A stretch of DNA of 64,000 nt, taken from Candidatus Nanoarchaeia archaeon. GTDB taxonomy: Archaea; Nanobdellota; Nanobdellia; Jingweiarchaeales; Jingweiarchaeaceae. Shown in pieces: positions 4,774 to 28,325 of the stretch. The notes beneath the pieces were generated by a model, which worked only from the letters and a program-made list of their open reading frames with translations, searched no databases and was not told where the DNA came from. Positions within the stretch are counted from its first letter, which is position 1. Each line of letters starts with the position of its first letter. The position numbers were made by a program, and so were the translations under genes. Location: contig JAVZDD010000002.1 in NCBI GenBank assembly GCA_038874075.1, forward strand, positions 4,605 to 68,604. The letters are read 5' to 3'.

Positions 4774-6156
4774 ATGATTATTTTAATTATGCAAGCAAAG
4801 CAGATATTCTCTTTGAGCTCGATTGTAATAGTAATTTTTTTAGTTGGTTGCATTGGTCAAACAACACAGATGTGCACAAATCCAGATATTTGCAGTGATG
4901 ATAATCGCTGCTGTTCTGGTTACATATGTTGTGATGGTGCATGTGTTAGAGCTGAGACCTGCGCTTGCACAGGAAACATTATTTTGAGCGAACAATTTTT
5001 GAAGAATTACACAGGTACAAATATCTCATCAGGTACAAATGTACAATTCACCATATGCGGACTTAATAAATACTGTGAAAATGAGACAGTCTACATTAAA
5101 GAATCAAATTGCGATGCTCCAGATTATTTAACTTCATTTAAACCAGTTTATAAAAGCTCTTGTAATAATTTCGGTGGTTCGCCTTCTTTTTTCCTTACAT
5201 ATGGTTCGCACACGATTTGTGCATGTATTGACATAAACAAAGATAATAAGTTTGATGGCGGGGAGAGGTCATGCAGAAGTTTCTTGATTTGTCATTCAAA
5301 TCTTTCAGAGACATGCTACTCGGATGCAATGTGCTGTGAGGGTAGATGTATGAATGGCAAATGTTGCTTAACAGAAAATCAAGTGTGTAGGAATAACGAA
5401 GAATGTTGTACGAACTTTTGTTCAAATGGCACATGTAAGGAAATACCAGTAACAACATGCGCTGGTCAGACAAAATTAGATTTACCATCCATTGTTTCTC
5501 CCCAAAGCCCGATTTCTGCAAAAATTTATGGTCTAAACTCACTCTGTGCTGGGCATAAAGTGTATCTTAAAAAACAAAATTGTACTGGCGAGATAATCAT
5601 AAGTACTACACTAGATAGCAACGGAAGTCGTTCATTCCAATTTTCCGCGCCTAGCATGCTCGGTACCCACACATATGCTGCTTGTGTTGATATTACAGGG
5701 AATGAAACATTTGATAAGCCAGAAGAGTACACAACGAAACAGGTTAGGGTATGTTATGGACTTGGGCAAAGATGTGAGAATGATAATGAATGTTGCTGTA
5801 ATATATGTGATTATGTTTGCGGGGCATGCGATGGCGATGTTAACCTATCTTTGAGTGCATACAATGTAACACCCAACGCAACGATCCTTGCAACGATTTC
5901 TGGTTTAAGCAACAGATGCTTGAACAGGACAATTGAACTTAGACAATCAAGTTGTGTGGGTGAATTAATAAAATCATGCAATGTTGAAATGTCTTTCTGT
6001 GAGGGTGATAGATGCACTTATGGTTGCCAATTCTCATTTAATGCACCAGCACAAAACGGAACGTATAGATACTTTGCCTTTTTAGATCTCGATCTAGACG
6101 GTTTCATATGCATAAGTGAAAAAGAGTACGGGTATGCGATTGTCAATGTTATCTAG
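4774..6156 (+). CDS. Cysteine-rich modular secreted/surface protein
   Basis: About 460 aa; N-terminal hydrophobic anchor ending LVGC, about 50 Cys, three about 80-aa repeats (x-GLN-x-C...GxHTYAAC-DI), Cys-rich linkers, many N-x-S/T sequons. Track start 4768 is TTG; ATG at 4774. Confidence 0.6.
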   Translation: MIILIMQAKQIFSLSSIVIVIFLVGCIGQTTQMCTNPDICSDDNRCCSGYICCDGACVRAETCACTGNIILSEQFLKNYTGTNISSGTNVQFTICGLNKYCENETVYIKESNCDAPDYLTSFKPVYKSSCNNFGGSPSFFLTYGSHTICACIDINKDNKFDGGERSCRSFLICHSNLSETCYSDAMCCEGRCMNGKCCLTENQVCRNNEECCTNFCSNGTCKEIPVTTCAGQTKLDLPSIVSPQSPISAKIYGLNSLCAGHKVYLKKQNCTGEIIISTTLDSNGSRSFQFSAPSMLGTHTYAACVDITGNETFDKPEEYTTKQVRVCYGLGQRCENDNECCCNICDYVCGACDGDVNLSLSAYNVTPNATILATISGLSNRCLNRTIELRQSSCVGELIKSCNVEMSFCEGDRCTYGCQFSFNAPAQNGTYRYFAFLDLDLDGFICISEKEYGYAIVNVI

Positions 6157-7600: not shown

Positions 7601-7610
7601 AATTTTTATA
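7601..7610 (+). promoter_or_regulatory. Candidate TATA box (aatttttata) for a leaderless MBF1-like transcript
   Basis: A/T-rich TATA-like element about 27-30 nt upstream of ATG 7637; inference only. Confidence 0.3.
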
Positions 7611-7636
7611 TGTTTAACATTTATTTAAGTCTTTGT

Positions 7637-8092
7637 ATGGTAATTTGCGAACTTTGCGGTAAAGAAGTGGAAAAGACATTAGATGTCAGCATCGAAGGTT
7701 CTGTACTTAGGCTATGCGAGTCATGCTCGAAGTTTGGTAAGGTCATCAAAGAAAATAAAATTGTACCAAAAAAAGTTGAAAAAGAGGAGGAAGAGAAAGA
7801 AATAACAATTGTTGAAAACTATGCTGAAATTTTCAGAGAACTGAGAGAAAAGCTTGGATTAACGCAAGAAGAATTCGCTCGCAAGCTCAATGTGAAAGAA
7901 AGTGAAATAAAGAAAATTGAAAGTTCAAAGCTCGAACCTGACATCAATCTAGCACTAAAAATTGAAAAAATGTTTGGAGTTAAATTAATCGAGGAAGGAT
8001 TTAATGTTTTATACAATAAAAGAGAGGAGAAGATAGGCAACTTGACAATCGGGGACGTTATTAAACTTAAGAAAAAGAAGAATTTTCGTTAA
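7637..8092 (+). CDS. mbf1: Archaeal multiprotein bridging factor 1-like protein (zinc ribbon + HTH-XRE)
   Basis: N-terminal CELCG...CESC zinc ribbon, C-terminal helix-turn-helix LGLTQEEFARKLNVKESEIKKIE; second in-frame ATG chosen because the first ATG (7610) sits inside the TATA-like element. Confidence 0.65.
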   Translation: MVICELCGKEVEKTLDVSIEGSVLRLCESCSKFGKVIKENKIVPKKVEKEEEEKEITIVENYAEIFRELREKLGLTQEEFARKLNVKESEIKKIESSKLEPDINLALKIEKMFGVKLIEEGFNVLYNKREEKIGNLTIGDVIKLKKKKNFR

Positions 8093-8124
8093 GTTTAAAT
8101 TTAAAGTTATTTTAAATAAATCCA

Positions 8125-8526
8125 ATGAAGTCTCAAGTGGCCATTGAATACATGATATTAATTTCTTTAATTCTACTACTCTTAGTACCTATCTGGATCT
8201 ATCTTATGCTTTCAAGGATACAGCTTCAAGATGATCTTTCAATTTCATACGCCAAAGATGCGGTCAATCGAATAAAAGATGCAGCCGATTTGGTTTACAT
8301 CCAAGGAAGTCCGGCTCGAGTGAAAGTGAATATTTATATTCCAGAAAATGTGCACAGCATAAATTTTACTGATAGGACGATCATCATCAAATTAAGGACA
8401 AGTGCTGGTCTCGTTGACATTCATGCAGAAACATTAGCTAACATTACAGGACAGCTGCCTGTTCAAAGCGGATACTACGAAGTAATTGTTAAATCCGAAG
8501 TGGGTTATGTGAATGTCACGATCTAA
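8125..8526 (+). CDS. Prepilin-like protein (class III signal peptide-like N-terminus)
   Basis: MKS-QVAIEY then about 20 hydrophobic residues; Q at +1 and E at +5 relative to a putative K-S cleavage site; many N-x-S/T sequons. Confidence 0.5.
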   Translation: MKSQVAIEYMILISLILLLLVPIWIYLMLSRIQLQDDLSISYAKDAVNRIKDAADLVYIQGSPARVKVNIYIPENVHSINFTDRTIIIKLRTSAGLVDIHAETLANITGQLPVQSGYYEVIVKSEVGYVNVTI

Positions 8527-8905
8527 GTCTCAAATAATCGCGGAAACGCTTTTTGTATATGCAATCTTATTTGCATTTTCAATGATCATGATAATCTACA
8601 TATTCGATCAAAATACACAAATGTTGGAAGAAAGAAAAAGGGCAGAAGCAAATAGAATTTCTTCAGATATTGTGGATGCAATAAATACAGCTGTGATTGA
8701 GGGTGATGGCTTCTCAATTACCTTCACAACACCACCAGACATATTGGGGACGAACTACACGCTAAACATCGATGATGGGGCATTATTGGTTGAATGGAGC
8801 AATCATACGTTAAGTAAAACAATTCTCACCAAGAATGTGTATGGTACATTAAAAAAAGGCACAAATACTGTGAGAAATGAAAATGGGCAGATTTTTATTG
8901 AATAA
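8513..8905 (+). CDS. Prepilin-like protein (class III signal peptide-like N-terminus)
   Basis: MSRSKS-QIIAETLFVYAILFAF; overlaps upstream gene by 14 nt. Confidence 0.5.
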   Translation: MSRSKSQIIAETLFVYAILFAFSMIMIIYIFDQNTQMLEERKRAEANRISSDIVDAINTAVIEGDGFSITFTTPPDILGTNYTLNIDDGALLVEWSNHTLSKTILTKNVYGTLKKGTNTVRNENGQIFIE

Positions 8906-9410
8906 AAAAGCACAAGTATTATCTGCTGATTTAGTGGTAAGCATTTTCATATTCACAATTATCATCTCTTTGTTTTTTATTTTTTGGAGAAATGTATATA
9001 ACAACCTGACAATGCAGGAAAAGTTTTTAGAATTACAATATTCGGCAATAAGAATCTCAAATATGCTCGTGAAGACAACCGGTTATCCAAGCAATTGGAA
9101 TTCAACCAATGTTGTTCAGATTGGGCTTGCATCAGAGGCAAATGTACTCTCAATTGAAAAGTTAAGAGTTTTCTTGGATATTAATTACGCTGAAATCAAG
9201 AGAATAATGAAAATAAGTGAGGATTTTAGGGTAAGAGTGAAATACAGAAATGGTAGTACGATTTTGGATAATCTTGGCTTGCCATTAGAAAAGGGATTGG
9301 AACCATCTCCAAGCGCCAAGATAATCGTTCCCATAGAAAGACCATGTCTATTAAAATTAGAAAATGTAACTGTAATTTGTATCTTTGAGTTTAAGTTGTG
9401 GTCAACATGA
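8877..9410 (+). CDS. Prepilin-like protein (class III signal peptide-like N-terminus)
   Basis: MKMGRFLLNKKA-QVLSADLVVSIFIFTII; overlaps upstream gene by 29 nt. Confidence 0.45.
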   Translation: MKMGRFLLNKKAQVLSADLVVSIFIFTIIISLFFIFWRNVYNNLTMQEKFLELQYSAIRISNMLVKTTGYPSNWNSTNVVQIGLASEANVLSIEKLRVFLDINYAEIKRIMKISEDFRVRVKYRNGSTILDNLGLPLEKGLEPSPSAKIIVPIERPCLLKLENVTVICIFEFKLWST

Positions 9411-12175
9411 AAAAAGGTTTTGTAATTCCACTTGATATGACAATCGCGATTATCATATTACTATTTACCTCAACCATATTCACATTCTTTCAGTATGGGC
9501 TTGAGACACCGGGAATAATCTATGAGCTTTCATATCAAAGGGCTGAAGATACGCTCACGATCTTGCAAAAAACAAAGATTGCTTATGTAACAGATGATCC
9601 CGTCGTAACACAATACATCAATCAAGGGATGATCACAGAAGAAGACATGAATAAAACGATATTGGACTTGATTGGTACATTTTGGTCCGAGGGAAAGGTT
9701 GATTTGGCCGTCAATTTATCAAAGAGTATTTTTGATTCACTATTACCACCAGAAGTTGGTTACGAAATTGTAATAGGGAACGACACTATTTATAGTCGAC
9801 CAGGTGTATTGGGTAGTATTTTCAGAGTGAGGACAGTTGTCTCTGGTTTCAAAACCGGAGAAGCACCACTAGGTTGCATCGCAAGCGCCTACATAGAAAA
9901 AATTAAAGGAAAACGAACCGCATCTTACTATTACTTTGGTGGTTTTACTGGTCAGGGAAATTTAACCTTTTATATTTATGATATTCCAAGCGATGCAATC
10001 ATAGAAAGCATCTATCTAGAACTCAGCACCGTGGCAAATGCCACTTTATACATAAATGGAAATTTTTGTCAATCATTAAATAAGAAATATCCAAATTACA
10101 CCGTTGAAAATTGGACAATATTTGATCAAAATTGCATCAATAACATCAGCAAGGGAGTGGCAAACCTATTCACCATTAACTTCTCTTCCCCAGTTACGAG
10201 TGCATACATTGGTGGCGGTTACATAAAGATCACGTATGATACTGCACAGATGAATGTTCCTCTGGGCAATGTGATGCAATACAACTTCACAGGAATTTCT
10301 GGTGTTATCAACCTGTATGATTCATTTTATATTCCAGGAAATTTAACATCGATGGAGATGCATTTGGAATTTTTAAGTAACTATTCAACTTTTTTCAATA
10401 TTGGTAACAAAACAATTTTTGAGAATAATGGAAGTAATACTACACAAATCATTGATTTCAATGATTCGTATCTATCACAAATTTTGAATTACAGTGAGAT
10501 AAGCTTGGAAACAATTCCATTGCGCTTCGGTATGAAGGCATTTAACATCACGATTCAACAGAATGCTGATGTCATTTTGATCACAGATTTATCTGGAAGT
10601 ATGGATTGGAGATTAGATAGCGAAAATACAGGAATAGCCAGAAATTGTACTGATCCTTTATTGAATAGTTCAAATACAAAAAGAATAAGCTTAGCAAAAT
10701 GTTTGGACAAGGAATTCGTTGATATCATATTAAATACTTCTGGAAATAGGGTTGGATTGGTTGGATTTTATAGTGACAATTCACCACCATACAAAGGAAG
10801 AACAATCATTCACGATTTATCCGATAATAAGACAAGCTTATACAATGCAATCGACAGCTATTTTATCCAGGGTGGAACATGTATCTGCTGTGGTATAAAC
10901 AGGGCTTATAACATTTTGAGTGCGCAGAGCAATGCATCAAGGAAAAAATTCATCGTTGTAATGTCAGATGGAATACCAACACACCAATGTGGCTCAAGTG
11001 GTACAGATGAGTGTCAAGGGATTAGAGATGGTTCTCCGGCAAATGAGGGTTTGTGGTTAGGTTGGGGGGCCGGATGTTATGGTGGAGGAGACGATTGTAA
11101 TACGACCGATTGCTTGTGTGCGATGCAAAATGCGAATTGGTCTTCATGCAGGTCATACAATAATTTGAATGCGACCGTATATTCAATTGGATTCGGACCT
11201 GTTGCAAGCTGTTGGAGTGCAAATTGGACATTGAGATCAATTGCTGATTGTGGACATGGCAGTTACTATGCAAGCAGCGATGCAGATGAACTCAAACAAA
11301 TTTACAGAAGTATCGCAGAATCGATCTTGAATGCATCTTACACCACACAATTGATAGAGGTAACAAATGTAACAAACACAATATTATATCCATCTTCTTA
11401 CATTAAATTTAATTACACACCCATTGTACCGCAATATGGTTACTCTGAAATATCTATAAAAGGTGATACAAAACCTTTCAGCGGTTGCAATGGAAGTTTT
11501 TTTGTTCCAGGTCAATTACAAATTGATGACGTTCAAGTTACATCTTACTCATTTGATTATTGGACGGATAAAATATTTGTGAATAATAGCATTACAAATG
11601 GTAGTTTGATCAATGTCTTTAATCTTTCAAAGTTTGGTAGTGATTATAAAAAACTTGGTGATCCATATGCGATCAAATTTCCAGCTTACTTCATTGGATC
11701 AAACGAGACTAATTACATTAACATTCTGCTTGCCCTGAGTCCGACAAATCAAAGCACAAATTGTTCAGCTGGTGATAGGGTCATTTACACTGGTAGAATT
11801 AGAACACCAATTATCTACTCAAATGTCCTACCATTTTGCAAAGGAAGCAATGTGAGCGTTTGCTTTGATAAAGATCACGATGGCTATGCAGATGGTTGTT
11901 CATACATTGCAATCGGTAAAAATCTTCCGAATTTCAATGCCACACCAAAAACCGTGGAGGATTTGAATCCAAATGAAAACGCAGTAGATCAAGTTTTCCT
12001 ACAACTTTTAGATGCATTAAACTTTGTTACAATACCAGCGAACACTGGTAGATCAGGAAATTTCACGAATCCGATTGACATAGAACTCGTTTCGGAACTG
12101 AATTTTGATACTGTTGATACAGCAAACGTACCATCTCTTTGGCAACCCGTATCAATTGAGGTGAGAATTTCATGA
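9407..12175 (+). CDS. Large prepilin-like surface protein with von Willebrand factor A domain
   Basis: MKKG-FVIPLD N-terminus plus hydrophobic helix; MIDAS motif DLSGSMD, GGT and VVMSDG motifs (vWA), Cys-rich insert, very high N-x-S/T density. Track start 9398 is GTG; ATG 9407 overlaps upstream stop (ATGA). Confidence 0.65.
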   Translation: MKKGFVIPLDMTIAIIILLFTSTIFTFFQYGLETPGIIYELSYQRAEDTLTILQKTKIAYVTDDPVVTQYINQGMITEEDMNKTILDLIGTFWSEGKVDLAVNLSKSIFDSLLPPEVGYEIVIGNDTIYSRPGVLGSIFRVRTVVSGFKTGEAPLGCIASAYIEKIKGKRTASYYYFGGFTGQGNLTFYIYDIPSDAIIESIYLELSTVANATLYINGNFCQSLNKKYPNYTVENWTIFDQNCINNISKGVANLFTINFSSPVTSAYIGGGYIKITYDTAQMNVPLGNVMQYNFTGISGVINLYDSFYIPGNLTSMEMHLEFLSNYSTFFNIGNKTIFENNGSNTTQIIDFNDSYLSQILNYSEISLETIPLRFGMKAFNITIQQNADVILITDLSGSMDWRLDSENTGIARNCTDPLLNSSNTKRISLAKCLDKEFVDIILNTSGNRVGLVGFYSDNSPPYKGRTIIHDLSDNKTSLYNAIDSYFIQGGTCICCGINRAYNILSAQSNASRKKFIVVMSDGIPTHQCGSSGTDECQGIRDGSPANEGLWLGWGAGCYGGGDDCNTTDCLCAMQNANWSSCRSYNNLNATVYSIGFGPVASCWSANWTLRSIADCGHGSYYASSDADELKQIYRSIAESILNASYTTQLIEVTNVTNTILYPSSYIKFNYTPIVPQYGYSEISIKGDTKPFSGCNGSFFVPGQLQIDDVQVTSYSFDYWTDKIFVNNSITNGSLINVFNLSKFGSDYKKLGDPYAIKFPAYFIGSNETNYINILLALSPTNQSTNCSAGDRVIYTGRIRTPIIYSNVLPFCKGSNVSVCFDKDHDGYADGCSYIAIGKNLPNFNATPKTVEDLNPNENAVDQVFLQLLDALNFVTIPANTGRSGNFTNPIDIELVSELNFDTVDTANVPSLWQPVSIEVRIS

Positions 12176-13407
12176 AAAGAGGCATAAGTTTCAGCATCAT
12201 CACATTCTTGTTTCTGATACCAATACTCACGTTCATAATCACATACTCAGAATCAATGCAATCAATCAGGAGGGAAAGCATAAAAAAGATTCTATCTGAT
12301 CAAAATATCTTCTTTTCTAAAACTTTGCTTAATGACCTAGAGAAAATGATATGGATAACGGGGAAACGAGCGATAATTTCAGCAATACAAAGAGTGATTA
12401 AGTATGGTACACCACTGAACGATTCCATTTCCGTTATAAAAGAGCTGATGCAAAACGGTACGATTTTTGGTGTAAATGAAACCCTAATGCAAAACAACAC
12501 AATCGGTTACTGGATAAACTTAATCCAATTGGAACAAAATGTATCTGCTTTCAATTTTTCAATCGCTTATTCAAATTTAGAGGTTGATTGGGAATCATTT
12601 AATTGCATTTTTAATGTTTCATTCTCAATTAATGTTTCTGACATTTCAAATACAACCAGGTCCACGAGGATTGGAAATATCTCAATTCTTGTTTCAATCG
12701 AAAAGATGGAAGATCCGATTTATCCACTATACACGAATGGATTGTTTAGAAAAAGTATAAAAATTTGTAATTCAACACTTCCCGAGGTTCGTAGTTTGGC
12801 TTTTGGTACAATCGCGAGTAAAAATGTCACAGGTATATCAGTCATTGGCCTCTCATCAAATTTAACTTACATTCAATCAATTCAAAACAAATCAGATAAA
12901 ATACTCGTCACAGATAACCTGACGATCATAGGTTCTGCCTTAATAAATGCATTTAAAGGAGTCGTTGCGGATCATAGCGATTTACCAGCAGGTATTACAG
13001 TACCATATATCATAAACACAACAAATGCAACAACATCCATACCAGACGCACGTTTAATATATTTGGACGAAATCACGAAGAAAGTTTGGGACATTGAAAA
13101 ATTTGAAGATACAATAAATACTGGTTGTTACCATATTTCATTGAATGGTTCAAACATTTTTGGTAGGTTAGAGGGAAAATTGAATTCTACGGGGAATAAA
13201 TCAGGCATTGAAAGTTTCGTTGATGTTAGAAAATTAATTTCAATGGATATACCAGTGAAAGAAAACCAAACACTTATTGATTATCTCTATTTTAGTAACA
13301 ACTCTCATCCAGGATGTAAAGTAAGGGGCATCAATGAAACGTGGTTTAGAATTGATCCCTGGAATGCTGAAAGATACGGAGTAGGAGAGATTTTAGATTG
13401 TAGTTAG
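12172..13407 (+). CDS. Membrane-anchored extracellular protein, last gene of the prepilin-like operon
   Basis: MKRGISFSIITFLFLIPILTFII N-terminus; SD GAGGTGAG upstream; start overlaps upstream stop; many sequons. Confidence 0.5.
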   Translation: MKRGISFSIITFLFLIPILTFIITYSESMQSIRRESIKKILSDQNIFFSKTLLNDLEKMIWITGKRAIISAIQRVIKYGTPLNDSISVIKELMQNGTIFGVNETLMQNNTIGYWINLIQLEQNVSAFNFSIAYSNLEVDWESFNCIFNVSFSINVSDISNTTRSTRIGNISILVSIEKMEDPIYPLYTNGLFRKSIKICNSTLPEVRSLAFGTIASKNVTGISVIGLSSNLTYIQSIQNKSDKILVTDNLTIIGSALINAFKGVVADHSDLPAGITVPYIINTTNATTSIPDARLIYLDEITKKVWDIEKFEDTINTGCYHISLNGSNIFGRLEGKLNSTGNKSGIESFVDVRKLISMDIPVKENQTLIDYLYFSNNSHPGCKVRGINETWFRIDPWNAERYGVGEILDCS

Positions 13408-14462
13408 CTTGGACATCTTGGACATGAGATACAATTGTATGAGTTATTAATAAAAACATTTCCGGTGAGAGATGGATCAGCGTTGATGCAATATACGCCA
13501 ATCACATTTTGTTCAATAATATTATTAGAAATTTGTATATTTGATTCTGTTATGATGCCAATGTGGTTTCTATAAATTCTACTATTACTTATAATTGTGT
13601 TGCTTCTCGGAATAAATAAACCCTGTCCCCACAATTCTGTGGAATTAAAACCACATCCACTCAGTTCTGAGTTATTGATTTGTAATGTTGCACCAGGTCG
13701 AACCTCAAAAAAGAAATTTGCATCTTCAAAATCACCATTTGTAATCTTTGAATTTAAGACATAAAGTGCACCCATATCTCCAACTTGAATGCCGTATTCA
13801 CCATCATAACTCGAATTTATACGCAAGGTCACATTGTGAAGGAATAATGCCGTAGAGAAAGGTAGGAGTGGATAGGTGATTTCACCACCAGTTCGAATCG
13901 TCAAATTTCCATTCAAATTTATAATTGTGTCACCGCAATATGTTGACTTATTAACAATCCATTCGCCAAATGTTGGGAACTCACACGGGGCTAGGTAAAT
14001 GTACCCATCAGATGGTGTGGCTTCTGAAGATGGAACCGTAAATTCAAATACAAATGAACCACCAGAAGGAAGTATAGCAATTAATTTTATCGTGTGGTTT
14101 TTTTCTGCTTCAAGCGGAGGCACAAATGTGATCGTTATTGATTCATTCGGCTTTAAATTGACCTCAATCTCATCTACCAATCTATCATCAACAAAAACCT
14201 TTATTTTTTCTATCTCCTCGGTTCCGGTGTTCTCTATTATCGTTTGATTTCCCTTGACTTCCTTGAAGCTGATTTCTACTTCTTTTTTGGGTTCTTGAGT
14301 ATGAGTAGATCCAGTCTTTGTTATTTGATAGTAAATCATCGCAATTAAAACAATTGCCACCAAGAGAATAGGAATCAATTTTTTTAGGAGATCACTTTTT
14401 TTATGAACCTCTTTTTCCTTCTTCACGACTGTTTGCTTGTCCTTAACTTCTCTCTTTTTCAT
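13404..14462 (-). CDS. Membrane-anchored protein with right-handed parallel beta-helix repeats
   Basis: K-rich N-terminus plus TM (LIPILLVAIVLIAMIYY); C-terminal repeats SNSRIYRNHIGIITESNIQISNNIIEQNVIGVY typical of PbH1 beta-helix repeats; ends CISCPRCPS. Confidence 0.55.
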   Translation of the reverse strand: MKKREVKDKQTVVKKEKEVHKKSDLLKKLIPILLVAIVLIAMIYYQITKTGSTHTQEPKKEVEISFKEVKGNQTIIENTGTEEIEKIKVFVDDRLVDEIEVNLKPNESITITFVPPLEAEKNHTIKLIAILPSGGSFVFEFTVPSSEATPSDGYIYLAPCEFPTFGEWIVNKSTYCGDTIINLNGNLTIRTGGEITYPLLPFSTALFLHNVTLRINSSYDGEYGIQVGDMGALYVLNSKITNGDFEDANFFFEVRPGATLQINNSELSGCGFNSTELWGQGLFIPRSNTIISNSRIYRNHIGIITESNIQISNNIIEQNVIGVYCINADPSLTGNVFINNSYNCISCPRCPS

Positions 14463-17676: not shown

Positions 17677-18990
17677 CTATTCTTCTTCAGAAATCGCAAT
17701 TGGTTCTTCTCCACCATGCCAACTTGTTCTTGGTCTTACTTGGATTGGATATATCCTTTCTTGAGTGTCATCAAGCGCGATCGCAGCACCCTTCAATCTT
17801 GGTAATTCTGAAATATATCTTTCAAGTGCGTATGGCAAATAACTCTGCATGATGTTGTTTAGTGCATTTATGTCTTCCTTTGATGTTACTCGGTGGGAAA
17901 TTACCAGATCACACTGAGAAATCACATCCCCGCTTAATTTACCTGGCTGTTGCGATGCTAACACAAGTGAAACTCCAGGTTGCCTACCTTCCCTGATCAC
18001 TTGTACGAGTGCATCAGTGGCTAATGTCTTTCCTTTTGCTGGAATAAATTCATGAGCCTCGTCTAGAAAAATCCAAACAAGAGGTACTTCTTTTTTTGCT
18101 TGCTCCTTGTATCTCTTTCCAAAAGCTGTGAATCCACCCTCTATCTCACTCAATTCCTCAATCTTTCTAGCGATTGTTCTGTGTTCTAATATTTTTTTTG
18201 TTATAATTCCTATTACGAGTGCTCTCAGGTTAAATCCACCCATTACCTGAGTATAATAAGAAATATCAAGTACTGTGATCTTACCCCTTTCCAACAAATT
18301 ATCCACTTTCGTCCCTTCCTTTTCAAAGAGACCCCATTCCTTGATCATGTCTAATTTATTTATCAATGCTAGTTTTGTTTGGTTATCAGCCTTTTCATCA
18401 GCTTCGACTGCTTGTATCACTTCATCAATACCAAATGCACCTTGTTTTTTCATCTTAGTTATTACTCGTTCAACCAATATGCCAATTGGGTCCGTTGACT
18501 CAACACCCATCAGAACACACCAATCTGATGGATTGAGCTCTGAAGTAGCAATCGAAAAAGGTCTGTCCACAGGCACATTTTGTGCCCTAAGTTTCTCAAA
18601 GAAACCATATGGTACATACACGATACATCTATCCGAGTAGTCCTTTGCTTCGAGCCCCCATTGCTCAAGTAATTTAAAATCTCTTCTATTTGGAAACTTT
18701 AATGTCCAATATATTCCCATCGTATCAAGAATAAGAGATGCAATGTTCTCTGATACTTCTGGAGGTAGGTTTGTCATTCCCTCTGCAATTACACCCATCG
18801 TGTAGCTCTTACCTTCACCTCTTTTTCCAGCAATTAATATCACATGTGGCCTGGATACATCAAGAAGCACCGGGTTAGCCAAGCTCTTTACCTTTTCCAT
18901 TGTTACATAATGTTTTGCCAAGAAAATAGTGCCTTTCGTGCCGTATTTATCCAAGTCTTTTTGTCTTCTACCCAAGATTATTTCATACAT
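17677..18990 (-). CDS. HerA/FtsK-superfamily P-loop ATPase (DUF87-like)
   Basis: Walker A HVILIAGKRGEGKSYT and Walker B VWIFLDEAHEFIP (hhhhDEAH type). Confidence 0.5.
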   Translation of the reverse strand: MYEIILGRRQKDLDKYGTKGTIFLAKHYVTMEKVKSLANPVLLDVSRPHVILIAGKRGEGKSYTMGVIAEGMTNLPPEVSENIASLILDTMGIYWTLKFPNRRDFKLLEQWGLEAKDYSDRCIVYVPYGFFEKLRAQNVPVDRPFSIATSELNPSDWCVLMGVESTDPIGILVERVITKMKKQGAFGIDEVIQAVEADEKADNQTKLALINKLDMIKEWGLFEKEGTKVDNLLERGKITVLDISYYTQVMGGFNLRALVIGIITKKILEHRTIARKIEELSEIEGGFTAFGKRYKEQAKKEVPLVWIFLDEAHEFIPAKGKTLATDALVQVIREGRQPGVSLVLASQQPGKLSGDVISQCDLVISHRVTSKEDINALNNIMQSYLPYALERYISELPRLKGAAIALDDTQERIYPIQVRPRTSWHGGEEPIAISEEE

Positions 18991-19051
18991 AATTAAATTA
19001 TAGAATTGTACATATTAAAATTTATTTATATAAGATGTATTAATCATTTAT

Positions 19052-19135
19052 GCCAGGTTGGCTGAGCGGTTAAAGCGCTAGCCTCGAAAGCTAGTGGAGC
19101 TTTGCTCCTCGCAGGTTCGAATCCTGCACCTGGCG
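19052..19135 (+). tRNA. tRNA-Ser (anticodon CGA)
   Basis: Acceptor stem GCCAGGT/ACCTGGC, anticodon arm CTAGC-CTCGAAA-GCTAG, long variable arm, T-arm GCAGG-TTCGAAT-CCTGC, discriminator G. Confidence 0.8.
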
Positions 19136-19163
19136 GTACTAAAAATTAAAAGAAATCAGATGA

Positions 19164-19526
19164 CTAATCTAAAACAATTTTTAATAATAGATCTTCTACG
19201 GCTGCTTTGAATTTTTTTAAATCTCCTTCTAAAAATGCTTTATCTATGTTTTCAAAGGTACTTTCGTAGTATCTGCTAAGTATATTATCTGGATTTGTTG
19301 GGTCATAGTAATATTTGTTCCTTTGCATTTTTTTAATAACGAGATATACTTTATCCATGTTTTTCTTTGTGATTTTAACTGGATGTATCTCGCCCAATCC
19401 TAATTTCGAGCCCCACCATTCTTTTCCAGTTATTGCGTGATAAACACTCCATTTCCCGAGCGTATCTTTCTCCAATGCTTCGTCAAGTAGTGTTTCTAAC
19501 TTACTTTTTTTGACCATTATCATCAC
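19164..19526 (-). CDS. Hypothetical protein
   Basis: 120 aa ORF; no recognisable motif. Confidence 0.4.
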   Translation of the reverse strand: MMIMVKKSKLETLLDEALEKDTLGKWSVYHAITGKEWWGSKLGLGEIHPVKITKKNMDKVYLVIKKMQRNKYYYDPTNPDNILSRYYESTFENIDKAFLEGDLKKFKAAVEDLLLKIVLD

Positions 19527-19622
19527 CTTTTATAATGAATGTCCATTTATTTATAAATTTTACTACTTATAAATAACAACTATTTTTATTATAAACCTAT
19601 TGTTCTTAACTAATTAGAGAAA

Positions 19623-20495
19623 ATGGAGAAAAATTCACTAATCACTGTTATTTCTGAAGAATGTTTGAAACATGAGAACCCATACGAACCAAGTAGTCGA
19701 TTAATACCGATTTATGAATCGAGAAATAGATTTGAATACAAAGAAGCAAAAGAATACGAAGAACAAATACTAAACTTAGTACATTCAAAAAAATACATTC
19801 AAGGAATCAAGGACATGAGAATTGATTCGAGTTCTGATACACCCATTAACCTTCACACATATAACAGTGCGTTATGGGCAGCAAGAGGAGCAGTAACAGC
19901 AGCCGAACTCTTGGATGAGTACAAACATTCATTTGCATTGATAAGACCACCCGGACACCATGCCAGCTTTTCTGGTAGCGTCATTTACCAAATCCCATGG
20001 GGATTTTGTTACTTCAATAATATTGCAATTGCAACAAAATATCTAATCAAAAACAAGAAGGCAGATAGAATTGCAATTTTAGACATGGACTTTCATTATG
20101 GTGAAGGAACTCAAAGTATTTTTAAGGATAATGACAACGTAAGATGCTTCTCAATACATGGAAGAACACACTTTCCTCCAGTCAAAGCATTTTCAGCCGG
20201 AAATTTAAAGAGCTTCACCATCCCAATTGAGAGCACAATTTACATAAAAACACTCAAAAAAGTTTTAGAAGAGATTTTAGAATTCAAACCAGACAGGATT
20301 GGAATTTCAATCGGTCTTGATACACATAAGAGAGATATGTTCGCTGGTAGTATTGGCGAAGGTCTAGAAACGAAAGATTATTATAATATTTTTAATCTGA
20401 TTGACAAATTAGACATAGGATGTTACTGGATATTGGAAGGCGGTTACAATGCCCAAGTGATTAAGGAGGTATTCCTTAATATTTTAAGTGAATGA
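19623..20495 (+). CDS. Histone deacetylase-family (HDAC/AcuC/acetylpolyamine amidohydrolase-like) protein
   Basis: RPPGHHA and DMDFHYGEGTQ motifs of the arginase/deacetylase superfamily. Confidence 0.75.
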   Translation: MEKNSLITVISEECLKHENPYEPSSRLIPIYESRNRFEYKEAKEYEEQILNLVHSKKYIQGIKDMRIDSSSDTPINLHTYNSALWAARGAVTAAELLDEYKHSFALIRPPGHHASFSGSVIYQIPWGFCYFNNIAIATKYLIKNKKADRIAILDMDFHYGEGTQSIFKDNDNVRCFSIHGRTHFPPVKAFSAGNLKSFTIPIESTIYIKTLKKVLEEILEFKPDRIGISIGLDTHKRDMFAGSIGEGLETKDYYNIFNLIDKLDIGCYWILEGGYNAQVIKEVFLNILSE

Positions 20496-20899
20496 AAATG
20501 AAAAAAGAAGTACAAACAGTCACATCTCTTTTAAAGTATAAGAATAAAATTTTATTATTAAAAAGATCACAAAGAGTTGGTTTCTATGCAGGTAAGTGGG
20601 CAGGAGTGAGTGGTTTCTTAGAAGAGGGTGAGATTCCTGAGGAAAGAGCTAAGATAGAAATTTTTGAAGAGACTGGATTAAAAGGAAAAATTTTGAAAAA
20701 AGGAAAAGTGATTAAAGTATTTGATAAAGAACTAAATGCTAACGTAGTAATACATCTCTTTTTATTTGAAGTTAAGAAACAAAAAGTAAAGCTAAATTGG
20801 GAGCATGATGATTATGTTTGGATTAAACCAGAAGAGATAAATAAATATGATACAGTTCCAATTTTGAATAGAATATTTAAGATATTATTAAAAAATTAA
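20492..20899 (+). CDS. Nudix hydrolase
   Basis: Nudix-box-like GVSGFLEEGEIPEERAKIEIFEETGL; start overlaps HDAC-like stop (ATGA). Confidence 0.55.
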   Translation: MKMKKEVQTVTSLLKYKNKILLLKRSQRVGFYAGKWAGVSGFLEEGEIPEERAKIEIFEETGLKGKILKKGKVIKVFDKELNANVVIHLFLFEVKKQKVKLNWEHDDYVWIKPEEINKYDTVPILNRIFKILLKN

Positions 20900-22083
20900 T
20901 TTTTGTAATTTTTAAGGAATTCAGCAATTTTCTTAATTCCCTCATTTATCCTTTCTTCATTTTCAGATACGAATGTCAATCTAAAATAACCTTCGTCCTT
21001 TCTCATCCCAAATGCGCTTCCTTGCACAATTGCGACTTTTTTAGTATCCAAAAGCTCACTTACAAATTTAGCATCATCTTTGATTCCTGGGATTCTTACA
21101 AAATAGTAAAATGCTCCATCTGGTTTTACGAAATCAGCTTCCGGTAAATGTTCCTCTAGACTTTTACCCATTGCCTCCATCCTCTTTTTATAAGTTTCAA
21201 CTACGTACTTCGTGTATGCTTCTCTTTTCGCCCTGTTCTCTTCCTTTAAAAATTCTATGATCAATTTTTGTGAAACAACATTTGGACAAATGATATCGTA
21301 TTGATTTGCCTTTATCATTGCATCAATGATATCTTTATTTGCATAGTTATAACCAATCCTCCATTGTGGAGCTGAAGCAGTCTTAGAAAAACTTCTTATA
21401 CCAACCAAATTATCCATGAATTCATTGAATGGTTCAAATTTACCATTGTATGTAATTAAGTAATAAGCTTCATCGCTCAAGATTGCCATCCCATTTTCCT
21501 TTGCAATCTCACCAATTGCACGAACTTCTTTTTTGTTGAGTATTCTTCCTGTTGGATTGTCTGGAGAAATCACGATAATTGCTTTTGTTTTTCCTTTATT
21601 CACTTTTTCATTAAGCTCATCGATGTCAATCCTGAAATTGTTTTCAATACCTGTTCTTATTTCAACCATCTTTGCATTGTTCAATTGAATAAGTCCCGGA
21701 TAGGCAACGTAAGTTGGTAAGATTGTAATTACTTCATCACCTGGATTTATTAATGATTTGAATGCAACACTGATCCCATTGGATGCAGCATTTGTGATTA
21801 ATATGTTTTCCAATGTTAGTTCGAATCCCTCTTCTTTCATACATTCCGCAATTCTTTGTCTGAGTTTTTTAAAACCAGCAGTAGCACAGTAACCCTTGGA
21901 ATTTTTGAGTATCTCACCTGCTTTTTCAAGTAGAAAATCTGGTGGATCTAGACTTGGCTCACCACCACCAAGACCTATGAGCTCTGGATCCTCTTTCAAT
22001 ATCTCAAGTTTTGTAGCGATTTCCCTTATAGGGGAAGCTTTAAGCGAAGAAATAGAGGAAGAAATCGTTGGTTTCATAATCAA
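20896..22083 (-). CDS. PLP-dependent aminotransferase (class I/II, aspartate aminotransferase-like)
   Basis: 395 aa; PLP-lysine region SFSKTASAPQWRIGY, typical fold-type I length. Confidence 0.75.
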   Translation of the reverse strand: MIMKPTISSSISSLKASPIREIATKLEILKEDPELIGLGGGEPSLDPPDFLLEKAGEILKNSKGYCATAGFKKLRQRIAECMKEEGFELTLENILITNAASNGISVAFKSLINPGDEVITILPTYVAYPGLIQLNNAKMVEIRTGIENNFRIDIDELNEKVNKGKTKAIIVISPDNPTGRILNKKEVRAIGEIAKENGMAILSDEAYYLITYNGKFEPFNEFMDNLVGIRSFSKTASAPQWRIGYNYANKDIIDAMIKANQYDIICPNVVSQKLIIEFLKEENRAKREAYTKYVVETYKKRMEAMGKSLEEHLPEADFVKPDGAFYYFVRIPGIKDDAKFVSELLDTKKVAIVQGSAFGMRKDEGYFRLTFVSENEERINEGIKKIAEFLKNYKN

Positions 22084-22129
22084 ACATATTTGAACTCATT
22101 TTATAAATCTTTCTATCACTGTTTAGTAA

Positions 22130-22597
22130 CTATTTTCTTTTAATTTTATTGAGTATCTTTTTAATGAATCTTTTATAGATGACGTCTCTTTCTAATGTTT
22201 CCCAAAAATCAAAAAAGAAGAGATAATTTAGAAAAATTAATACAACATATGTAATCACATCATATGTAATCCTTTCCCAATAATTACCCAATGTGATCAA
22301 TAACCCGATTTCATCAATTATTATACCGAGACCGATGCCATATAGCACTGCGCAAAGTCTTGTGAAGTGTTTTCCGTGATAATGGAGCGTTAAACCACCC
22401 GATAAAATGATTATAAAAATACCAAGGAAAAAGTGATGAATGTGATAACCTCTCCATATTAAGTTAATGTTTGGAAACAACAATACAAATGTTCTTGCAG
22501 CTGCAAAACTTATGAAAAGTGAGACAAAAACGATGAAAGGTATCTCCTTTCTCCTTTTATCCAATTCCTCTTTTATAATTGAGAGTACCCACTGCAT
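22130..22597 (-). CDS. Integral membrane protein
   Basis: 155 aa with about four hydrophobic helices. Confidence 0.4.
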   Translation of the reverse strand: MQWVLSIIKEELDKRRKEIPFIVFVSLFISFAAARTFVLLFPNINLIWRGYHIHHFFLGIFIIILSGGLTLHYHGKHFTRLCAVLYGIGLGIIIDEIGLLITLGNYWERITYDVITYVVLIFLNYLFFFDFWETLERDVIYKRFIKKILNKIKRK

Positions 22598-22720
22598 ATT
22601 AATATTAAGAAATAATCAGTTTAATTATTTTTTTAATTAGAATATATGTGTTTAAACATGAAACGTTATATTTAAAAAGATTTAAATCTTATTAATAGCG
22701 ATATTTTATAGGTAAGCAAA

Positions 22721-23194
22721 ATGCCAGAGGAAAAGAAGATAATCAGAATTGCAGGCACTGACTTAGATGGGAATTTAAAGATAGAGCGAGCGCTTTGGAA
22801 GATTAAGGGCATAGGTAATATGTTCGCGAGAGCAATAAGAACTGCTGGAGGATGGCCTCCAGATAAAAAACTTGGAGAGCTGGATGATAATGAAATAGAG
22901 AAATTAAAAGAGATGATAAGAGATCCGGCTAAATTTGGGATAAAACCATGGCTGCTAAACAGGAGAAGGGACATCGAGACAGGTAAAGACATGCATCTCG
23001 TTTCCTCGGAACTTGAATTTGCCCAAAAAAGTGATATAGAATTCTTAAAGAAAATAAAAGCGAGAAGGGGAATAAGACATATGTTGGGATTGAAGGTTAG
23101 AGGACAGAGAACAAGAAATACAGGGAGAAAAGGTCCTGCTGTTGGTGTTTCAAGAAAAAAGGTACAGCCTGCTAAAGCTTCTAAAAAAGAGTGA
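22721..23194 (+). CDS. rps13: 30S ribosomal protein S13 (uS13)
   Basis: RIAGTDLDGN...KGIGNMFARAI...RGIRHMLGLKVRGQRT signature. Confidence 0.9.
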   Translation: MPEEKKIIRIAGTDLDGNLKIERALWKIKGIGNMFARAIRTAGGWPPDKKLGELDDNEIEKLKEMIRDPAKFGIKPWLLNRRRDIETGKDMHLVSSELEFAQKSDIEFLKKIKARRGIRHMLGLKVRGQRTRNTGRKGPAVGVSRKKVQPAKASKKE

Positions 23195-23199
23195 GTTAA

Positions 23200-23727
23200 A
23201 TGGGTGATCCAAGGACAAGATTAAAAAAGAAGTATGAAAAACCAAAACAAAGATGGCAGAAATTAAGGATTGATAAAGAAGCTGATTTGATTAAAAAGTA
23301 TGGTTTCGTGAATAAGCGAGAAATATGGAAAATGCAGTCTATATTAAGGAAATGGAGACAGCAGGCAAGAAAATTGATTGCCTCAAAAGGTGATCAGGCT
23401 AGAATAGAGAAAGAGCAATTGATATCAAAACTTTCAAAACTAGGTTTGGTAAAAAAGGACGCAAAGCTTGATGATGTACTTGGTTTGGAAATAAATAACT
23501 TATGTGATAGAAGATTGCAAACGATTGTCTTTAATAAAGGACTTGCAAATTCAATAAAACAAGCTAGACAATTCATTGTTCATGGTCACATATCAATCAA
23601 AGATAAAAAAATCAAGTCACCAAATTATCTAGTTCCGATCGATGAGGAAGGATTAGTCATGTTTTCCAAGGGGTCAAAGATAGCCCAAGAACAGCTGAAG
23701 AAAAGTGGTGAAAAAGTTGGAGCCTAA
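23200..23727 (+). CDS. rps4: 30S ribosomal protein S4 (uS4)
   Basis: S4 domain [29 protein letters not shown]; follows rps13. Confidence 0.9.
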
Positions 23728-25050: not shown

Positions 25051-25173
25051 GCGGGGGTAGCGAAGCTAGGTCCAACGCGCAGGACTTAAGTTTAATTACT
25101 TAAGTGATGAGGTCACAATGATATGAAATCCTGTGGCTTAGTGCCCGCGTGGGTTCAAATCCCACCCCCCGCA
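25051..25173 (+). tRNA. tRNA-Leu (anticodon TAA) with about 37-nt intron
   Basis: Acceptor GCGGGGG/CCCCCGC, discriminator A, long variable arm, T-arm GTGGG-TTCAAAT-CCCAC; anticodon stem CAGGA...TCCTG interrupted by about 37 nt (25091-25127 if at canonical 37/38 site). Confidence 0.65.
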
Positions 25174-26219: not shown

Positions 26220-27887
26220 ATGAATAATGAAGAATTCCAAAAGCAAAAAATCGCTTATTTTTCAATGGAGATAGCACTAAAAAATGATATTTTTACATAC
26301 GCTGGTGGTTTGGGGGTTTTAGCCGGAGATACGATTAGATCAAGCGCTGATTTGAACATACCTCTAGTCGCGGTTTCTTTGATAAGCAAGAAAGGATATT
26401 TCAAGCAAGAAATAACAGAAGACGGTAGACAAATTGAATATCCGCAAGAATGGGATCCATCAAAATATATGAAACTCTTACCTGAAACAATTGAGGTAAA
26501 AATAAAAAATGAAAAAGTTAAGGTTAAAGCTTGGCTTTACGAATGGCGCAGTTTGATTGGTGGTGTTGTTCCAGTACTTTTCCTTGATACGGATGTGGAC
26601 GGAAATTCTGAAGAAAATCGCGCGATAACACATTACCTTTATGGAGGTGATGAGAAGTATAGATTAAAACAAGAAATCGTGCTTGGTATTGGTGGAGTTA
26701 GAATGTTGGAAGCGCTTGGATTTAGGATCAAGAAATACCACATGAACGAGGGTCACTGTGCACTTTTAGCTCTTGAATTGTTATATAAGAATGGAACAGA
26801 TGTGGATAAAGTAAGGGAATCTTGTATTTTTACTACACATACACCTGTGGAAGCTGCACATGATAAATTTTCATACGAACTCATCAGCGAATTGTTAGGG
26901 GAAGCCGATTTAAGTCTATTAAAGAAATATGGAGGACAGGATAAATTCAACATGACGCTTTTTGCTTTAAATATGAGCAATTATGTTAATGGTGTGGCTC
27001 AGAAACATCGAGAAGTGGTTGGTGGAATGTTTCCAGGTTACACTGTACATGCAATTACAAATGGTGTACATTCTTACACATGGACTTGTGATAGTTTCAA
27101 AAGAATATTTAATAAGTATTTACCTGGATGGGCAAATGAACCAGATTTTTTAGTGAGAGTGGATGTGATACCAGAAGAGGAAATCTGGCATGCACATCAA
27201 GAGGCAAAGAAAAATTTGATTGATTATGTGAACAATGTTACTAACATTAATATGGATTACAATACTTTCACAATGGGTTTTGCTAGGAGAGCAACAGGAT
27301 ATAAAAGAGCAACATTTCTTTTTTCAGATCCAGAAAGATTAAAAAAAATAAATCGTAGGTATAAAATGCAATTAATATTTGCTGGAAAAGCACATCCAAA
27401 GGATGATTCAGGTAAGAGAATAATCGCTGAAATATTCGATCATATAAAAAAATTGAAGGATGAAATTAAAATTGTTTATCTACCGAATTATGACCTTGAC
27501 TTGGCACTCAAATTTGTTTCTGGCGTTGATGTTTGGTTGAATACACCATTGAGACCGTTGGAAGCGTCAGGTACTAGCGGGATGAAAGCAGCACACAATG
27601 GTGTAATAAACTTCAGTGTTTTAGATGGTTGGTGGGTAGAAGGCTGCATTGAAAATGTTACTGGTTGGGCTATTGGTCCCCATCCAAATGAAAACCTTTC
27701 TTCTTGGGATACTTACATAAGAGAAAAGGATGATTTGTACAATAAATTGGAGTATGTGATCCTTCCAATGTTTTACAATCAAAGAGATGCATGGATTCAA
27801 ATGATGAAAAATTCGATTGGTAAAATTGCATATTACTTCAACAGTCACCGAATGATGCGTAGATATGTGACAGAAGCGTACCTCTAA
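26220..27887 (+). CDS. glgP: Alpha-glucan (glycogen/maltodextrin) phosphorylase, short GT35 type
   Basis: 555 aa; PLP-site motif EASGTSGMKAAHNG, N-terminal AYFSMEIAL...YAGGLGVLAGD. Confidence 0.8.
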   Translation: MNNEEFQKQKIAYFSMEIALKNDIFTYAGGLGVLAGDTIRSSADLNIPLVAVSLISKKGYFKQEITEDGRQIEYPQEWDPSKYMKLLPETIEVKIKNEKVKVKAWLYEWRSLIGGVVPVLFLDTDVDGNSEENRAITHYLYGGDEKYRLKQEIVLGIGGVRMLEALGFRIKKYHMNEGHCALLALELLYKNGTDVDKVRESCIFTTHTPVEAAHDKFSYELISELLGEADLSLLKKYGGQDKFNMTLFALNMSNYVNGVAQKHREVVGGMFPGYTVHAITNGVHSYTWTCDSFKRIFNKYLPGWANEPDFLVRVDVIPEEEIWHAHQEAKKNLIDYVNNVTNINMDYNTFTMGFARRATGYKRATFLFSDPERLKKINRRYKMQLIFAGKAHPKDDSGKRIIAEIFDHIKKLKDEIKIVYLPNYDLDLALKFVSGVDVWLNTPLRPLEASGTSGMKAAHNGVINFSVLDGWWVEGCIENVTGWAIGPHPNENLSSWDTYIREKDDLYNKLEYVILPMFYNQRDAWIQMMKNSIGKIAYYFNSHRMMRRYVTEAYL

Positions 27888-27889
27888 AT

Positions 27890-28204
27890 TTATTTTCTCT
27901 TCTTAATCTCGATCAGTTGCTTTTCAAATCTCTTCATTATTTCTCTCTTTCTTCTTTCTCTTTCATTTATCACTTCTTTTTTTCCTATCATATAACCAAT
28001 CACTAGTAAGAATATACCAATGAAGATAAAAGGAATAAATGAAATCGCAAAGAAAATAGCTACCTGGAAAGTATTTATCATTGGGTAACGTGTCATAAGA
28101 AACATTATTAAAAATAAGATGATTACTATGGGCATAAATATGATGAAAACTCCTATTCCTTTGAGAATGTCAGAAATTGCCTCAATAGATATCTCATCCA
28201 GCAT
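27890..28204 (-). CDS. Small membrane protein
   Basis: 104 aa, two hydrophobic helices and basic C-terminus. Confidence 0.4.
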   Translation of the reverse strand: MLDEISIEAISDILKGIGVFIIFMPIVIILFLIMFLMTRYPMINTFQVAIFFAISFIPFIFIGIFLLVIGYMIGKKEVINERERRKREIMKRFEKQLIEIKKRK

Positions 28205-28235
28205 AAGTAAATAATAATTTATAAAAATTTAAATC

Positions 28236-28324: not shown

Positions 28325-28325
28325 A

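Follow-up and report, generated by a model that had tools for sequence, protein, structure and literature searches.

A von Willebrand A protein with a prepilin-like N-terminus in a conserved five-gene module of DPANN archaea: a candidate adhesive subunit of a type IV pilus

How DPANN archaea recognize and attach to their hosts is largely unexplained: appendages have been imaged (PMC7906910), and no adhesin has been named. A locus that bears on this question lies in the window analyzed here, by which we mean the whole 64-kb stretch (64,000 nucleotides) taken from contig JAVZDD010000002.1 of a Candidatus Nanoarchaeia archaeon. Five overlapping genes of the same strand, called a, b, c, V and d throughout, follow one another there; the fourth and, as already noticed in a first-pass annotation made from the sequence alone, the largest of them is V, which that annotation read as a metal-dependent adhesin presented on a filament by way of a pilin-like anchor. 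What is this protein, and does it belong to a pilus? The results described below support the earlier reading, with adhesion, processing, glycosylation and position at the tip as its inferred parts: V is probably an adhesive, minor-pilin-like subunit of the a-b-c-V-d set, which would first prime and then cap a type IV pilus belonging to 'system 1' of the archaea (the Epd/Tad-like kind).

V is already present in databases under a generic vWA (von Willebrand factor type A) name, and vWA domains carried by type IV pilus subunits are known in bacteria. Neither a prepilin-like vWA subunit from archaea nor the five-gene DPANN module is described in the literature that we searched: a 2016 census presents vWA proteins only as cytoplasmic regulators, save for a remark on bacterial TadG; vWA is absent from a 2026 preprint (10.64898/2026.04.22.720090); and the genome paper of the lineage is silent on both the vWA protein and the module (PMC10134863).

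The vWA domain, its metal site and its surroundings

The open reading frame (ORF) of V runs on the forward strand from an ATG at position 9407 to a TGA at 12173-12175. These are the limits given in the first pass; the length of 923 residues given with them becomes 922, because the stop codon had been included in the count. An in-frame GTG at 9398 offers a start three residues further upstream, and public gene calls start at 9407. The protein is identical to the NCBI entry 'VWA domain-containing protein' of Candidatus Jingweiarchaeum tengchongense (Nanobdellota, DPANN), and the identical sequence is also recorded under 'Candidatus Parvarchaeota archaeon', with contigs of up to 358 kb.

A vWA domain with a complete MIDAS (metal ion-dependent adhesion site) had been proposed from three motifs, all of which are found in V: DLSGSMD (residues 394-400), GGT (489-491) and VVMSDG (517-522). 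Profile searches bear this out, with scores above the cut-off for both VWA_2 (30.6 bits, cut-off 27, residues 389-522) and VWA (27.7 bits, cut-off 23.8, residues 438-633). The AlphaFold2 model, which like the residue conservation reported here is based on 92 homologues, is confident (mean predicted local distance difference test score, pLDDT = 89.5) and displays a Rossmann-like alpha/beta fold. The top Foldseek match is the bacterial pilin PilB, and PilB is also the best match (E = 0.009) when the vWA region is compared with every PDB chain by a plain sequence search: DLSGSMDW of V aligns with DTSGSMDW of PilB, and SDGIP with TDGIP, a stretch that reads TAGIP in the entry of the D319A MIDAS mutant. 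Since its residues align with those of PilB and are either invariant (D394, S398 and D521, in 92/92 homologues) or nearly so (S396 and T491, in 91/92), the MIDAS of V is complete and under strong constraint.

V contains 22 cysteines, 14 of them in the vWA region. The Cys/Gly/Trp-rich segment pointed out in the first pass is indeed there, at residues 536-581, between the strand of the MIDAS aspartate (513-520) and a core helix (570-587), and little regular secondary structure is modeled at residues 521-569. A second insert, at residues 401-425, comes directly after the strand of the DxSxS motif; thus the MIDAS is flanked by two inserts, in the layout called 'arms' in PilB and RrgA (PMC8179133). 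The cysteines conserved in at least 90% of the 92 homologues are C414, C432, C536, C557, C564, C581, C602 and C615. They include a pair at arm 1 (C414 inside the insert, C432 just after it) and those of arm 2 (C536 in 90, C557 in 84, C564 in 91 and C581 in 88 of the 92); in addition, a C-x-C-C motif follows the MIDAS threonine in most members of the family (C492 in 70/92, C494 in 82/92, C495 in 70/92). The cysteines of the inserts are probably disulfide-bonded.

The regions on either side of the vWA domain are less easily related to known proteins. Invariant Gly/Asn motifs (FGGxxGxGN, YIGGGY and PGIxGxINLYDSFYxPG) run through the beta-rich region at residues 119-386, and profile searches of residues 1-386 and 646-922 against PDB sequences returned nothing below E = 0.9; the C-terminal domain (277 residues) has no Pfam or PDB sequence relative. 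Pfam and NCBIfam scans of V returned no TadE/TadG, PilY1, archaellin or pilin family, and a match to CglB (E = 0.08) is not significant.

The first pass had also drawn attention to the density of N-x-S/T sequons in V. There are 40 of them (4.3 per 100 residues), compared with 13.0 ± 3.2 in 20,000 shuffles of V's own sequence, none of which reached 40 (z = 8.5); they take up 40 of the 80 asparagines of the protein, and the reversed control motif, [ST]-x-N, occurs 12 times, at expectation. The product of gene d is similarly rich (23 sequons versus 6.1 expected, z = 7.9). As a background, the other 60 ORFs of the window have 0.53 sequons per 100 residues, with an observed/expected ratio of 1.13; the same ratio is 3.1 for the five operon proteins together and 2.15 for other window proteins with a hydrophobic N-terminus. 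Sequon enrichment is real, and a general trait of this organism's surface proteins, of which V and d are the most extreme. It extends to the homologues of V (median 3.2 sequons per 100 residues, median observed/expected 2.46), and single sites are retained among the 92 (N185 in 88, N606 in 79, N443 in 71). The enrichment fits selection for N-glycosylation of an extracellular protein. No AglB gene was found among the ORFs scanned in the window. A GlmU-like sugar-nucleotidyltransferase is encoded at 49627-50919, and could supply glycan precursors.

Prepilin-like N-termini and the conserved module

The description of the N-terminus of V as prepilin-like stands as well. It reads MKKG/FVIPLDMTIAIIILLF (here and below a slash marks the predicted cleavage site), is class III-like, and is conserved across the family; a short basic leader is followed by a hydrophobic helix of at least 20 residues (MKKG/FVIPLDMTIAIIILLFTSTIFTFF; residues 6-31 in the AlphaFold2 model, continuing to 55). 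Family alignments reveal class III-type N-termini in all five operon proteins. Families a and b have the canonical [KR]-G/Q-x-x-x-E-[YF], with the glutamate at +5; family c has Q at +1 and D at +6; family V has K-K-G/x-x-F-S-L-[DE]-A followed by a hydrophobic stretch, with D or E at +6; and family d has K-K-G/ and no acidic residue. In the whole window a loose filter for such N-termini retained only these five proteins and one weak candidate at 27890-28204. The product of a weakly matches Pfam Class_IIIsignal (PF04021; E = 0.013, 15.9 bits versus a cut-off of 23.7), and that of b the NCBIfam minor pilin model ComGD (E = 9e-4, below cut-off) and, again weakly, DUF7266; a and b are full-length paralogues (hhalign 98.3%). 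All four partners of V are annotated by NCBI as hypothetical protein, and could be carried in annotation as prepilin-like minor pilin candidates instead.

Successive genes of the a-b-c-V-d series overlap by 14, 29, 4 and 4 nt, the c/V and V/d junctions both consisting of ATGA. The operon is preceded, on its own strand, by an aMBF1 gene (region 7610-8124, forward strand) with its end 32 nt upstream of a, and this gene is a further sign that the window is archaeal. A TTTAAAT box about 27 nt before the ATG of a might be the TATA box of a leaderless operon transcript; in an AT-rich genome such a box is weak evidence. A scan for operon promoters and terminators yielded 33 sites versus 29.8 expected, and was set aside because its models are bacterial and unsuited to an archaeon.

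The module is not confined to this genome. A word-indexed protein search found 721 relatives of V, and a scan of one genome per species detected a relative in at least 479 genomes. From 1.84 billion representatives a profile of the C-terminal domain retrieved 652 clusters (at 50% identity), of which 477 reach E <= 1e-30; the V family comprises about 650 clusters and is almost all DPANN. In the proteins listed, fragments aside, the C-terminal domain sits at the extreme C-terminus, and both ends of the family are constant while the middle varies in length, for totals of about 850 to 1,940 residues. In the long variants of about 1,170-1,940 residues (P0019, P0011, P0014 and others; P0315 and P0331 have about 1,900) both termini are kept and extra domains are inserted, and the Micrarchaeota versions carry an additional BNR-like insert (PF14870).

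The gene neighborhood was studied at 80 non-redundant related loci, the ORFs of which were called and then labeled by iterated hidden Markov model (HMM) searches. By their record labels, which are unverified, about 55 of these best 80 loci are DPANN (Aenigmatarchaeota, Woesearchaeota, Pacearchaeota, Nanoarchaeota, Micrarchaeota, Altiarchaeota and Parvarchaeota), 15 are unclassified archaea, 9 are euryarchaeal and 1 is bacterial (a 3.5-kb contig). Where at least 2 kb of upstream sequence is available, c lies directly upstream of V in 54 of 66 loci, and the full a-b-c set in 46 of the same 66; d is found downstream in 47 of the 65 loci with at least 1.5 kb on that side. When a flank of at least 8 kb on both sides is required, ATPase and platform genes occur within 10 kb of V in 25 of 28 loci. 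With E for the ATPase, F for a platform gene and u for a further conserved family, the loci follow one of two layouts: a b c V d u E F F in the first, and F F E u divergent from a b c V d in the second. E belongs to the FlaI/TadA type of ATPases (291-293 bits, versus the 550-bit cut-off of the ArlI equivalog), the two half-size platform genes correspond to the N- and C-terminal halves of ArlJ, and a KaiC/ArlH-like ATPase is present at some loci. A split platform is the hallmark of the archaeal type IV filament 'system 1', that of the methanococcal Epd pilus, which has been reported in DPANN too and is seen as the system from which the Tad pilus of bacteria arose (preprint 10.64898/2026.04.22.720090). 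Beside the machinery, 32 of the 80 loci encode a candidate major pilin of 120-175 residues, with the near-invariant N-terminus [KR][GA]/Q-A-A-M-E-[FY]-LMTYGWAIL (for example at 2549-2974 of locus L004, reverse strand, and 17919-18395 of L007, forward strand; 30 further loci have one).

Some features of these loci deserve mention in their own right. Family u (184-294 residues) usually lies directly upstream of the pilus ATPase and has weak winged-helix (MarR) and DUF7118 matches (examples: L004, 6397-6951, reverse; L005, 7586-8470, reverse; L006, 14542-15246, forward). In L006, from Micrarchaeota, the segment downstream of the machinery (18751-23219, forward) encodes a KaiC/ArlH-like ATPase, prepilin-like proteins of 366 and 132 residues, and a 719-residue protein, part of which resembles AgmC_N (E = 6e-40, below cut-off); another series of a/b/c-like genes was labeled there as well. 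In the Aenigmatarchaeota metagenome-assembled genome WJKS01 (L009 and L033) the complete a-b-c-V-d module is present twice, each copy being accompanied by ATPase and platform genes of its own.

Table 1. Positions in the window of the five genes of the operon and of the segments of V (slash, predicted cleavage site).
Feature	Position	Strand	Remarks
Gene a, 133-aa prepilin-like protein (MKS/QVAIEY...), small minor-pilin candidate	8125..8526	+	
Gene b, 130-aa prepilin-like protein (..KS/QIIAE..)	8513..8905	+	
Gene c, 175/177-aa prepilin-like protein (..KKA/QVLSAD..)	8877..9410	+	
Gene V, 922-aa vWA/MIDAS protein	9407..12175	+	
V aa 1-55: MKKG leader (cleavage predicted after G4) and long hydrophobic alpha-1 helix with a kink at G31-P35	9407..9571	+	AlphaFold2 helices 6-31 and 35-55; conserved family N-terminus
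V aa 56-386: helical bundle (56-118), then beta-rich region (119-386)	9572..10564	+	
V aa 387-645: vWA domain	10565..11341	+	
MIDAS DxSxS (DLSGSMD, aa 394-400)	10586..10606	+	Aligns with PilB DTSGSMD
Insert (arm) 1 beside the MIDAS, aa 401-425	10607..10681	+	Strand 387-394 and helix 426-441 are joined without regular core secondary structure
GGT (MIDAS Thr491), then conserved C-I-C-C	10871..10879	+	
VVMSDG (MIDAS Asp521)	10955..10972	+	Aligns with PilB TDG (Asp319)
Arm 2 (Cys/Gly/Trp-rich insert) with the beginning of the following helix, aa 523-581	10973..11149	+	
V aa 646-922: beta-rich C-terminal domain specific to the family (SYSxxYWTD, LGDPY, terminal W)	11342..12172	+	
Gene d, 411-aa prepilin-like protein (MKRG/ISFSIITFLF..), helix without acidic residue	12172..13407	+	

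Proposed mechanism and competing explanations

These results can be arranged into a mechanism, as follows. The five tightly overlapping genes would be co-expressed, and their products would enter the membrane by means of their class III signals, where a prepilin peptidase would cut the short basic leaders (MKKG/ in V). The five alpha-1 helices would bundle on the split platform protein to form an initiation complex, and the ATPase would polymerize beneath it a separate major pilin, such as the protein of about 120-175 residues with the Q-A-A-M-E-[FY]-LMTYGWAIL N-terminus in the relatives, so that the bulky V and d would reach the distal tip. Exposed there, the MIDAS may carry Mg2+ or Mn2+ and engage an acidic side chain of a ligand that belongs to a host cell, to a partner cell or to a surface; the two Cys-rich inserts would shape ligand specificity and stabilize the domain in this hot-spring organism, and N-glycans would cover the remaining surface. 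Pili-like appendages that link ultrasmall cells to their hosts have been seen in groundwater by cryogenic transmission electron microscopy (PMC7906910); they make host attachment plausible, but are not specific to this locus.

It is conceivable, although in our judgment unlikely, that V serves mainly in assembly or anchoring, with the five proteins nucleating the pilus or holding the filament in the envelope, and the MIDAS binding a component of the pilus or of the envelope. Most genes of the Epd pilin operon of M. maripaludis, minor pilins included, are essential for piliation (PMC3875500), piliation falls sharply on loss of CpaL (PMC12607857), a hypothesis of TadG as an anchor is cited by Makarova et al. 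(PMC4858521), and the strict gene order and 1:1 overlaps of the module point to a structural complex of defined stoichiometry. Priming does not preclude adhesion at the tip, however, because in known systems the priming complex becomes the tip. Moreover, the nearest relatives of V, by structure as well as by sequence, are adhesins, and a variable middle between constant ends fits an outward-facing module that adapts to its target better than an internal anchor.

A number of observations do weigh against V being a subunit of a pilus, and part of them would agree with V being instead a stand-alone, membrane-anchored surface adhesin or envelope protein, the helix of which is an unprocessed transmembrane or signal anchor, and the linkage of which to pilus genes is a matter of co-regulation. 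V has no match at E <= 0.1 to the pilin and class III signal profiles (PF04021, N_methyl, TadE), and its acidic residue is off position, at +6 rather than at the canonical +5, which is not universal in archaeal pilins. A canonical pilin head was not detected in its medium-confidence model, and between the alpha-1 helix and the vWA domain lie about 380 residues (a helical bundle and two beta-rich parts), whereas in PilB there is a compact pilin head with a short linker. The kinship of c, d and V over roughly their first 60 residues (hhalign 89-95%; 95.4% for c-V, 89% for d-V) speaks for a pilin-like set, but composition can inflate hhalign scores between hydrophobic N-terminal helices. Among the ORFs scanned in the window, which include the small ones in part, there is no pilus machinery beside the operon, be it ATPase, platform, prepilin peptidase or candidate major pilin, and a protein database search with the ATPase of the closest relative that has an adjacent one gave 7,672 near-equivalent matches, none of them attributable to this genome. 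Furthermore, sequon-rich and Cys-rich secreted proteins that lack pilin features are encoded nearby (4774-6156 and 13404-14462).

Set against a stand-alone protein are the conservation of [KR]-[KR]-G before the helix across phylum-level DPANN lineages, the embedding of V among four class III-signal genes in fixed order, and the position of the module beside ATPase and platform genes in 25 of the 28 well-flanked loci; on balance we give this alternative little credence. As to the machinery of this genome, the minor-pilin operon, the ATPase/platform genes and the major pilin gene of M. maripaludis offer a precedent for separate loci (PMC3875500); according to the genome paper of the lineage, flaHIJ-type genes occur in the group and every genome has PilA-family pilins (PMC10134863), and Aap loci are mentioned for this species (preprint 10.64898/2026.04.22.720090).

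Very improbable, finally, is a short pseudopilus, or a structure similar to a bindosome, that would serve to capture or secrete substrates, and in which jelly-roll (carbohydrate-binding module-like) and vWA domains would bind nutrients or glycans on behalf of a metabolically dependent cell: the beta-rich part of V does bear a weak resemblance to carbohydrate-binding jelly-rolls, but these matches come from a model with a pLDDT of 69 and reflect generic beta-sandwich similarity, the BasE score (125 bits), far under its cut-off of 1000, is also lower than the score against the FlaI (ArlI) model, the machinery is encoded together with a conserved candidate major pilin, and V has no solute-binding protein domains.

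Two further candidates were considered and rejected. One is an archaellum: the ATPase scores 291-293 bits against a cut-off of 550, the platform is split in two genes, and no archaellin match occurs among the proteins scanned. The other is an ArnB-like cytoplasmic vWA regulator of archaeal motility, which would be recognized as a soluble protein paired with an FHA/ZnF partner or a MoxR ATPase, and V does not answer to this description.

Elsewhere in the window, the first of the two secreted-looking neighbors mentioned above (4774-6156, forward strand) has 460 residues, of which 48 (about 10%) are cysteines, together with 13 sequons (z = 3.4) and an N-terminus that is hydrophobic, and no Pfam or NCBIfam match; it looks like an unusually Cys-rich secreted protein. 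The second (13404-14462, reverse strand; 352 residues) is convergent with d, the two stop codons overlapping, and has weak CARDB and DUF2808 matches, beta-helix-like repeats, a Cys-rich tail and 10 sequons (z = 3.2). Two atypical tRNA genes, at 28235-28325 (reverse) and 25051-25173 (forward), are both probably intron-containing archaeal tRNAs; ARAGORN assigns a 4-nt anticodon to one, and the other, of 123 nt, was detected by Rfam only. A VTC-domain protein (29729-30991, reverse; polyphosphate-related) and a glycogen/alpha-glucan phosphorylase-like protein (26220-27887, forward) are also encoded in this reduced genome.

Comparison with known systems

PilB of Streptococcus sanguinis, the closest match to the vWA region, is a MIDAS-dependent adhesin, likely exposed at the tip (PMC8179133), and a type IV minor pilin made of two modules, one of them a vWA adhesin (PDB 7B7P). 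It is bacterial and has 420-426 residues in the solved chains, whereas V is archaeal, has 922 residues, and shares with it an overall identity of 15-19%; V differs also by the helical bundle and the beta-rich domains of about 270 residues that precede its vWA domain, by its Cys-rich arms, by its C-terminal domain of 277 residues and by its dense sequons. The survey of modular pilins in the PilB paper used a bacterial pilin signature, and the word 'archaea' is absent from its text (PMC8179133). The tips of sortase-assembled pili (RrgA, SpaC, GBS104, PitA) and the type V protein Mfa5 likewise display a vWA fold with an arm-flanked MIDAS at the tip, but their assembly chemistry (sortase or strand exchange) is unrelated, and the resemblance is a convergent solution. 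PilY1/PilC of type IVa pili is a large, tip-associated adhesin that primes assembly together with about four minor pilins, and some members carry an N-terminal vWA domain (PMC8179133); PilY1, however, does not belong to the pilins and has a C-terminal beta-propeller as its defining feature, whereas V has a prepilin-like N-terminus and no match to the propeller (PF05567).

Among archaeal systems the likeness is to the Epd pilus of M. maripaludis, which also has a split platform, and prepilins with Q at +1 and E at +5, as in a and b. Several Epd minor pilins are essential for piliation, the pilin operon lies apart from the ATPase, platform and major pilin loci, and the pilins are N-glycosylated (PMC3875500; preprint 10.64898/2026.04.22.720090). 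No vWA-bearing subunit has been reported there, the adhesin-like candidates of that system carrying DUF2341 and galactose-binding domains instead; V would add such a subunit to an Epd-like system, the kind thought to be the source of the Tad pilus with its vWA-bearing TadG.

The parallel with Tad pili is one of architecture only. Tad minor pilins form exchangeable tips that select targets. CpaL/TadG is a pilin-like vWA protein with inserted beta-rich domains and a predicted position at the tip (PMC12607857). As in TadG/CpaL, a vWA domain with its MIDAS is mounted on a pilin-like anchor and encoded with small minor pilins and a two-gene platform. Neither V nor its partners, by comparison, match the TadE/TadG N-terminal profiles (PF07811/PF13400) at E <= 0.1; the pilin-like set has five members here versus three in Tad pili (TadG with TadE/TadF, that is CpaL with CpaJ/CpaK), the number being three in both S. 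sanguinis and Caulobacter, and no secretin or outer-membrane part is involved.

If the proposed assignment is right, the V family provides a concrete, widespread and testable candidate for attachment of DPANN cells to their hosts: the conserved MIDAS is amenable to mutation, the soluble domain to expression, and the variable middle could be correlated with host range. A broader proposal, which we offer as tentative and rather doubtful at present, is that a-b-c-V-d is a DPANN-wide tip for host recognition: the constant ends of V would dock on the minor-pilin bundle, and the variable middle (the vWA domain, the Cys-rich arms and the domains inserted in the proteins of 1,200-1,900 residues) would set which host envelope is gripped, making the module an archaeal counterpart, possibly the evolutionary source, of the TadE/F/G (CpaJ/K/L) tip complex. 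For V itself, the best explanation is that it represents the archaeal counterpart of bacterial PilB and TadG/CpaL, which would extend from bacteria to archaea the idea of the 'modular pilin', a functional module carried on a pilin anchor.

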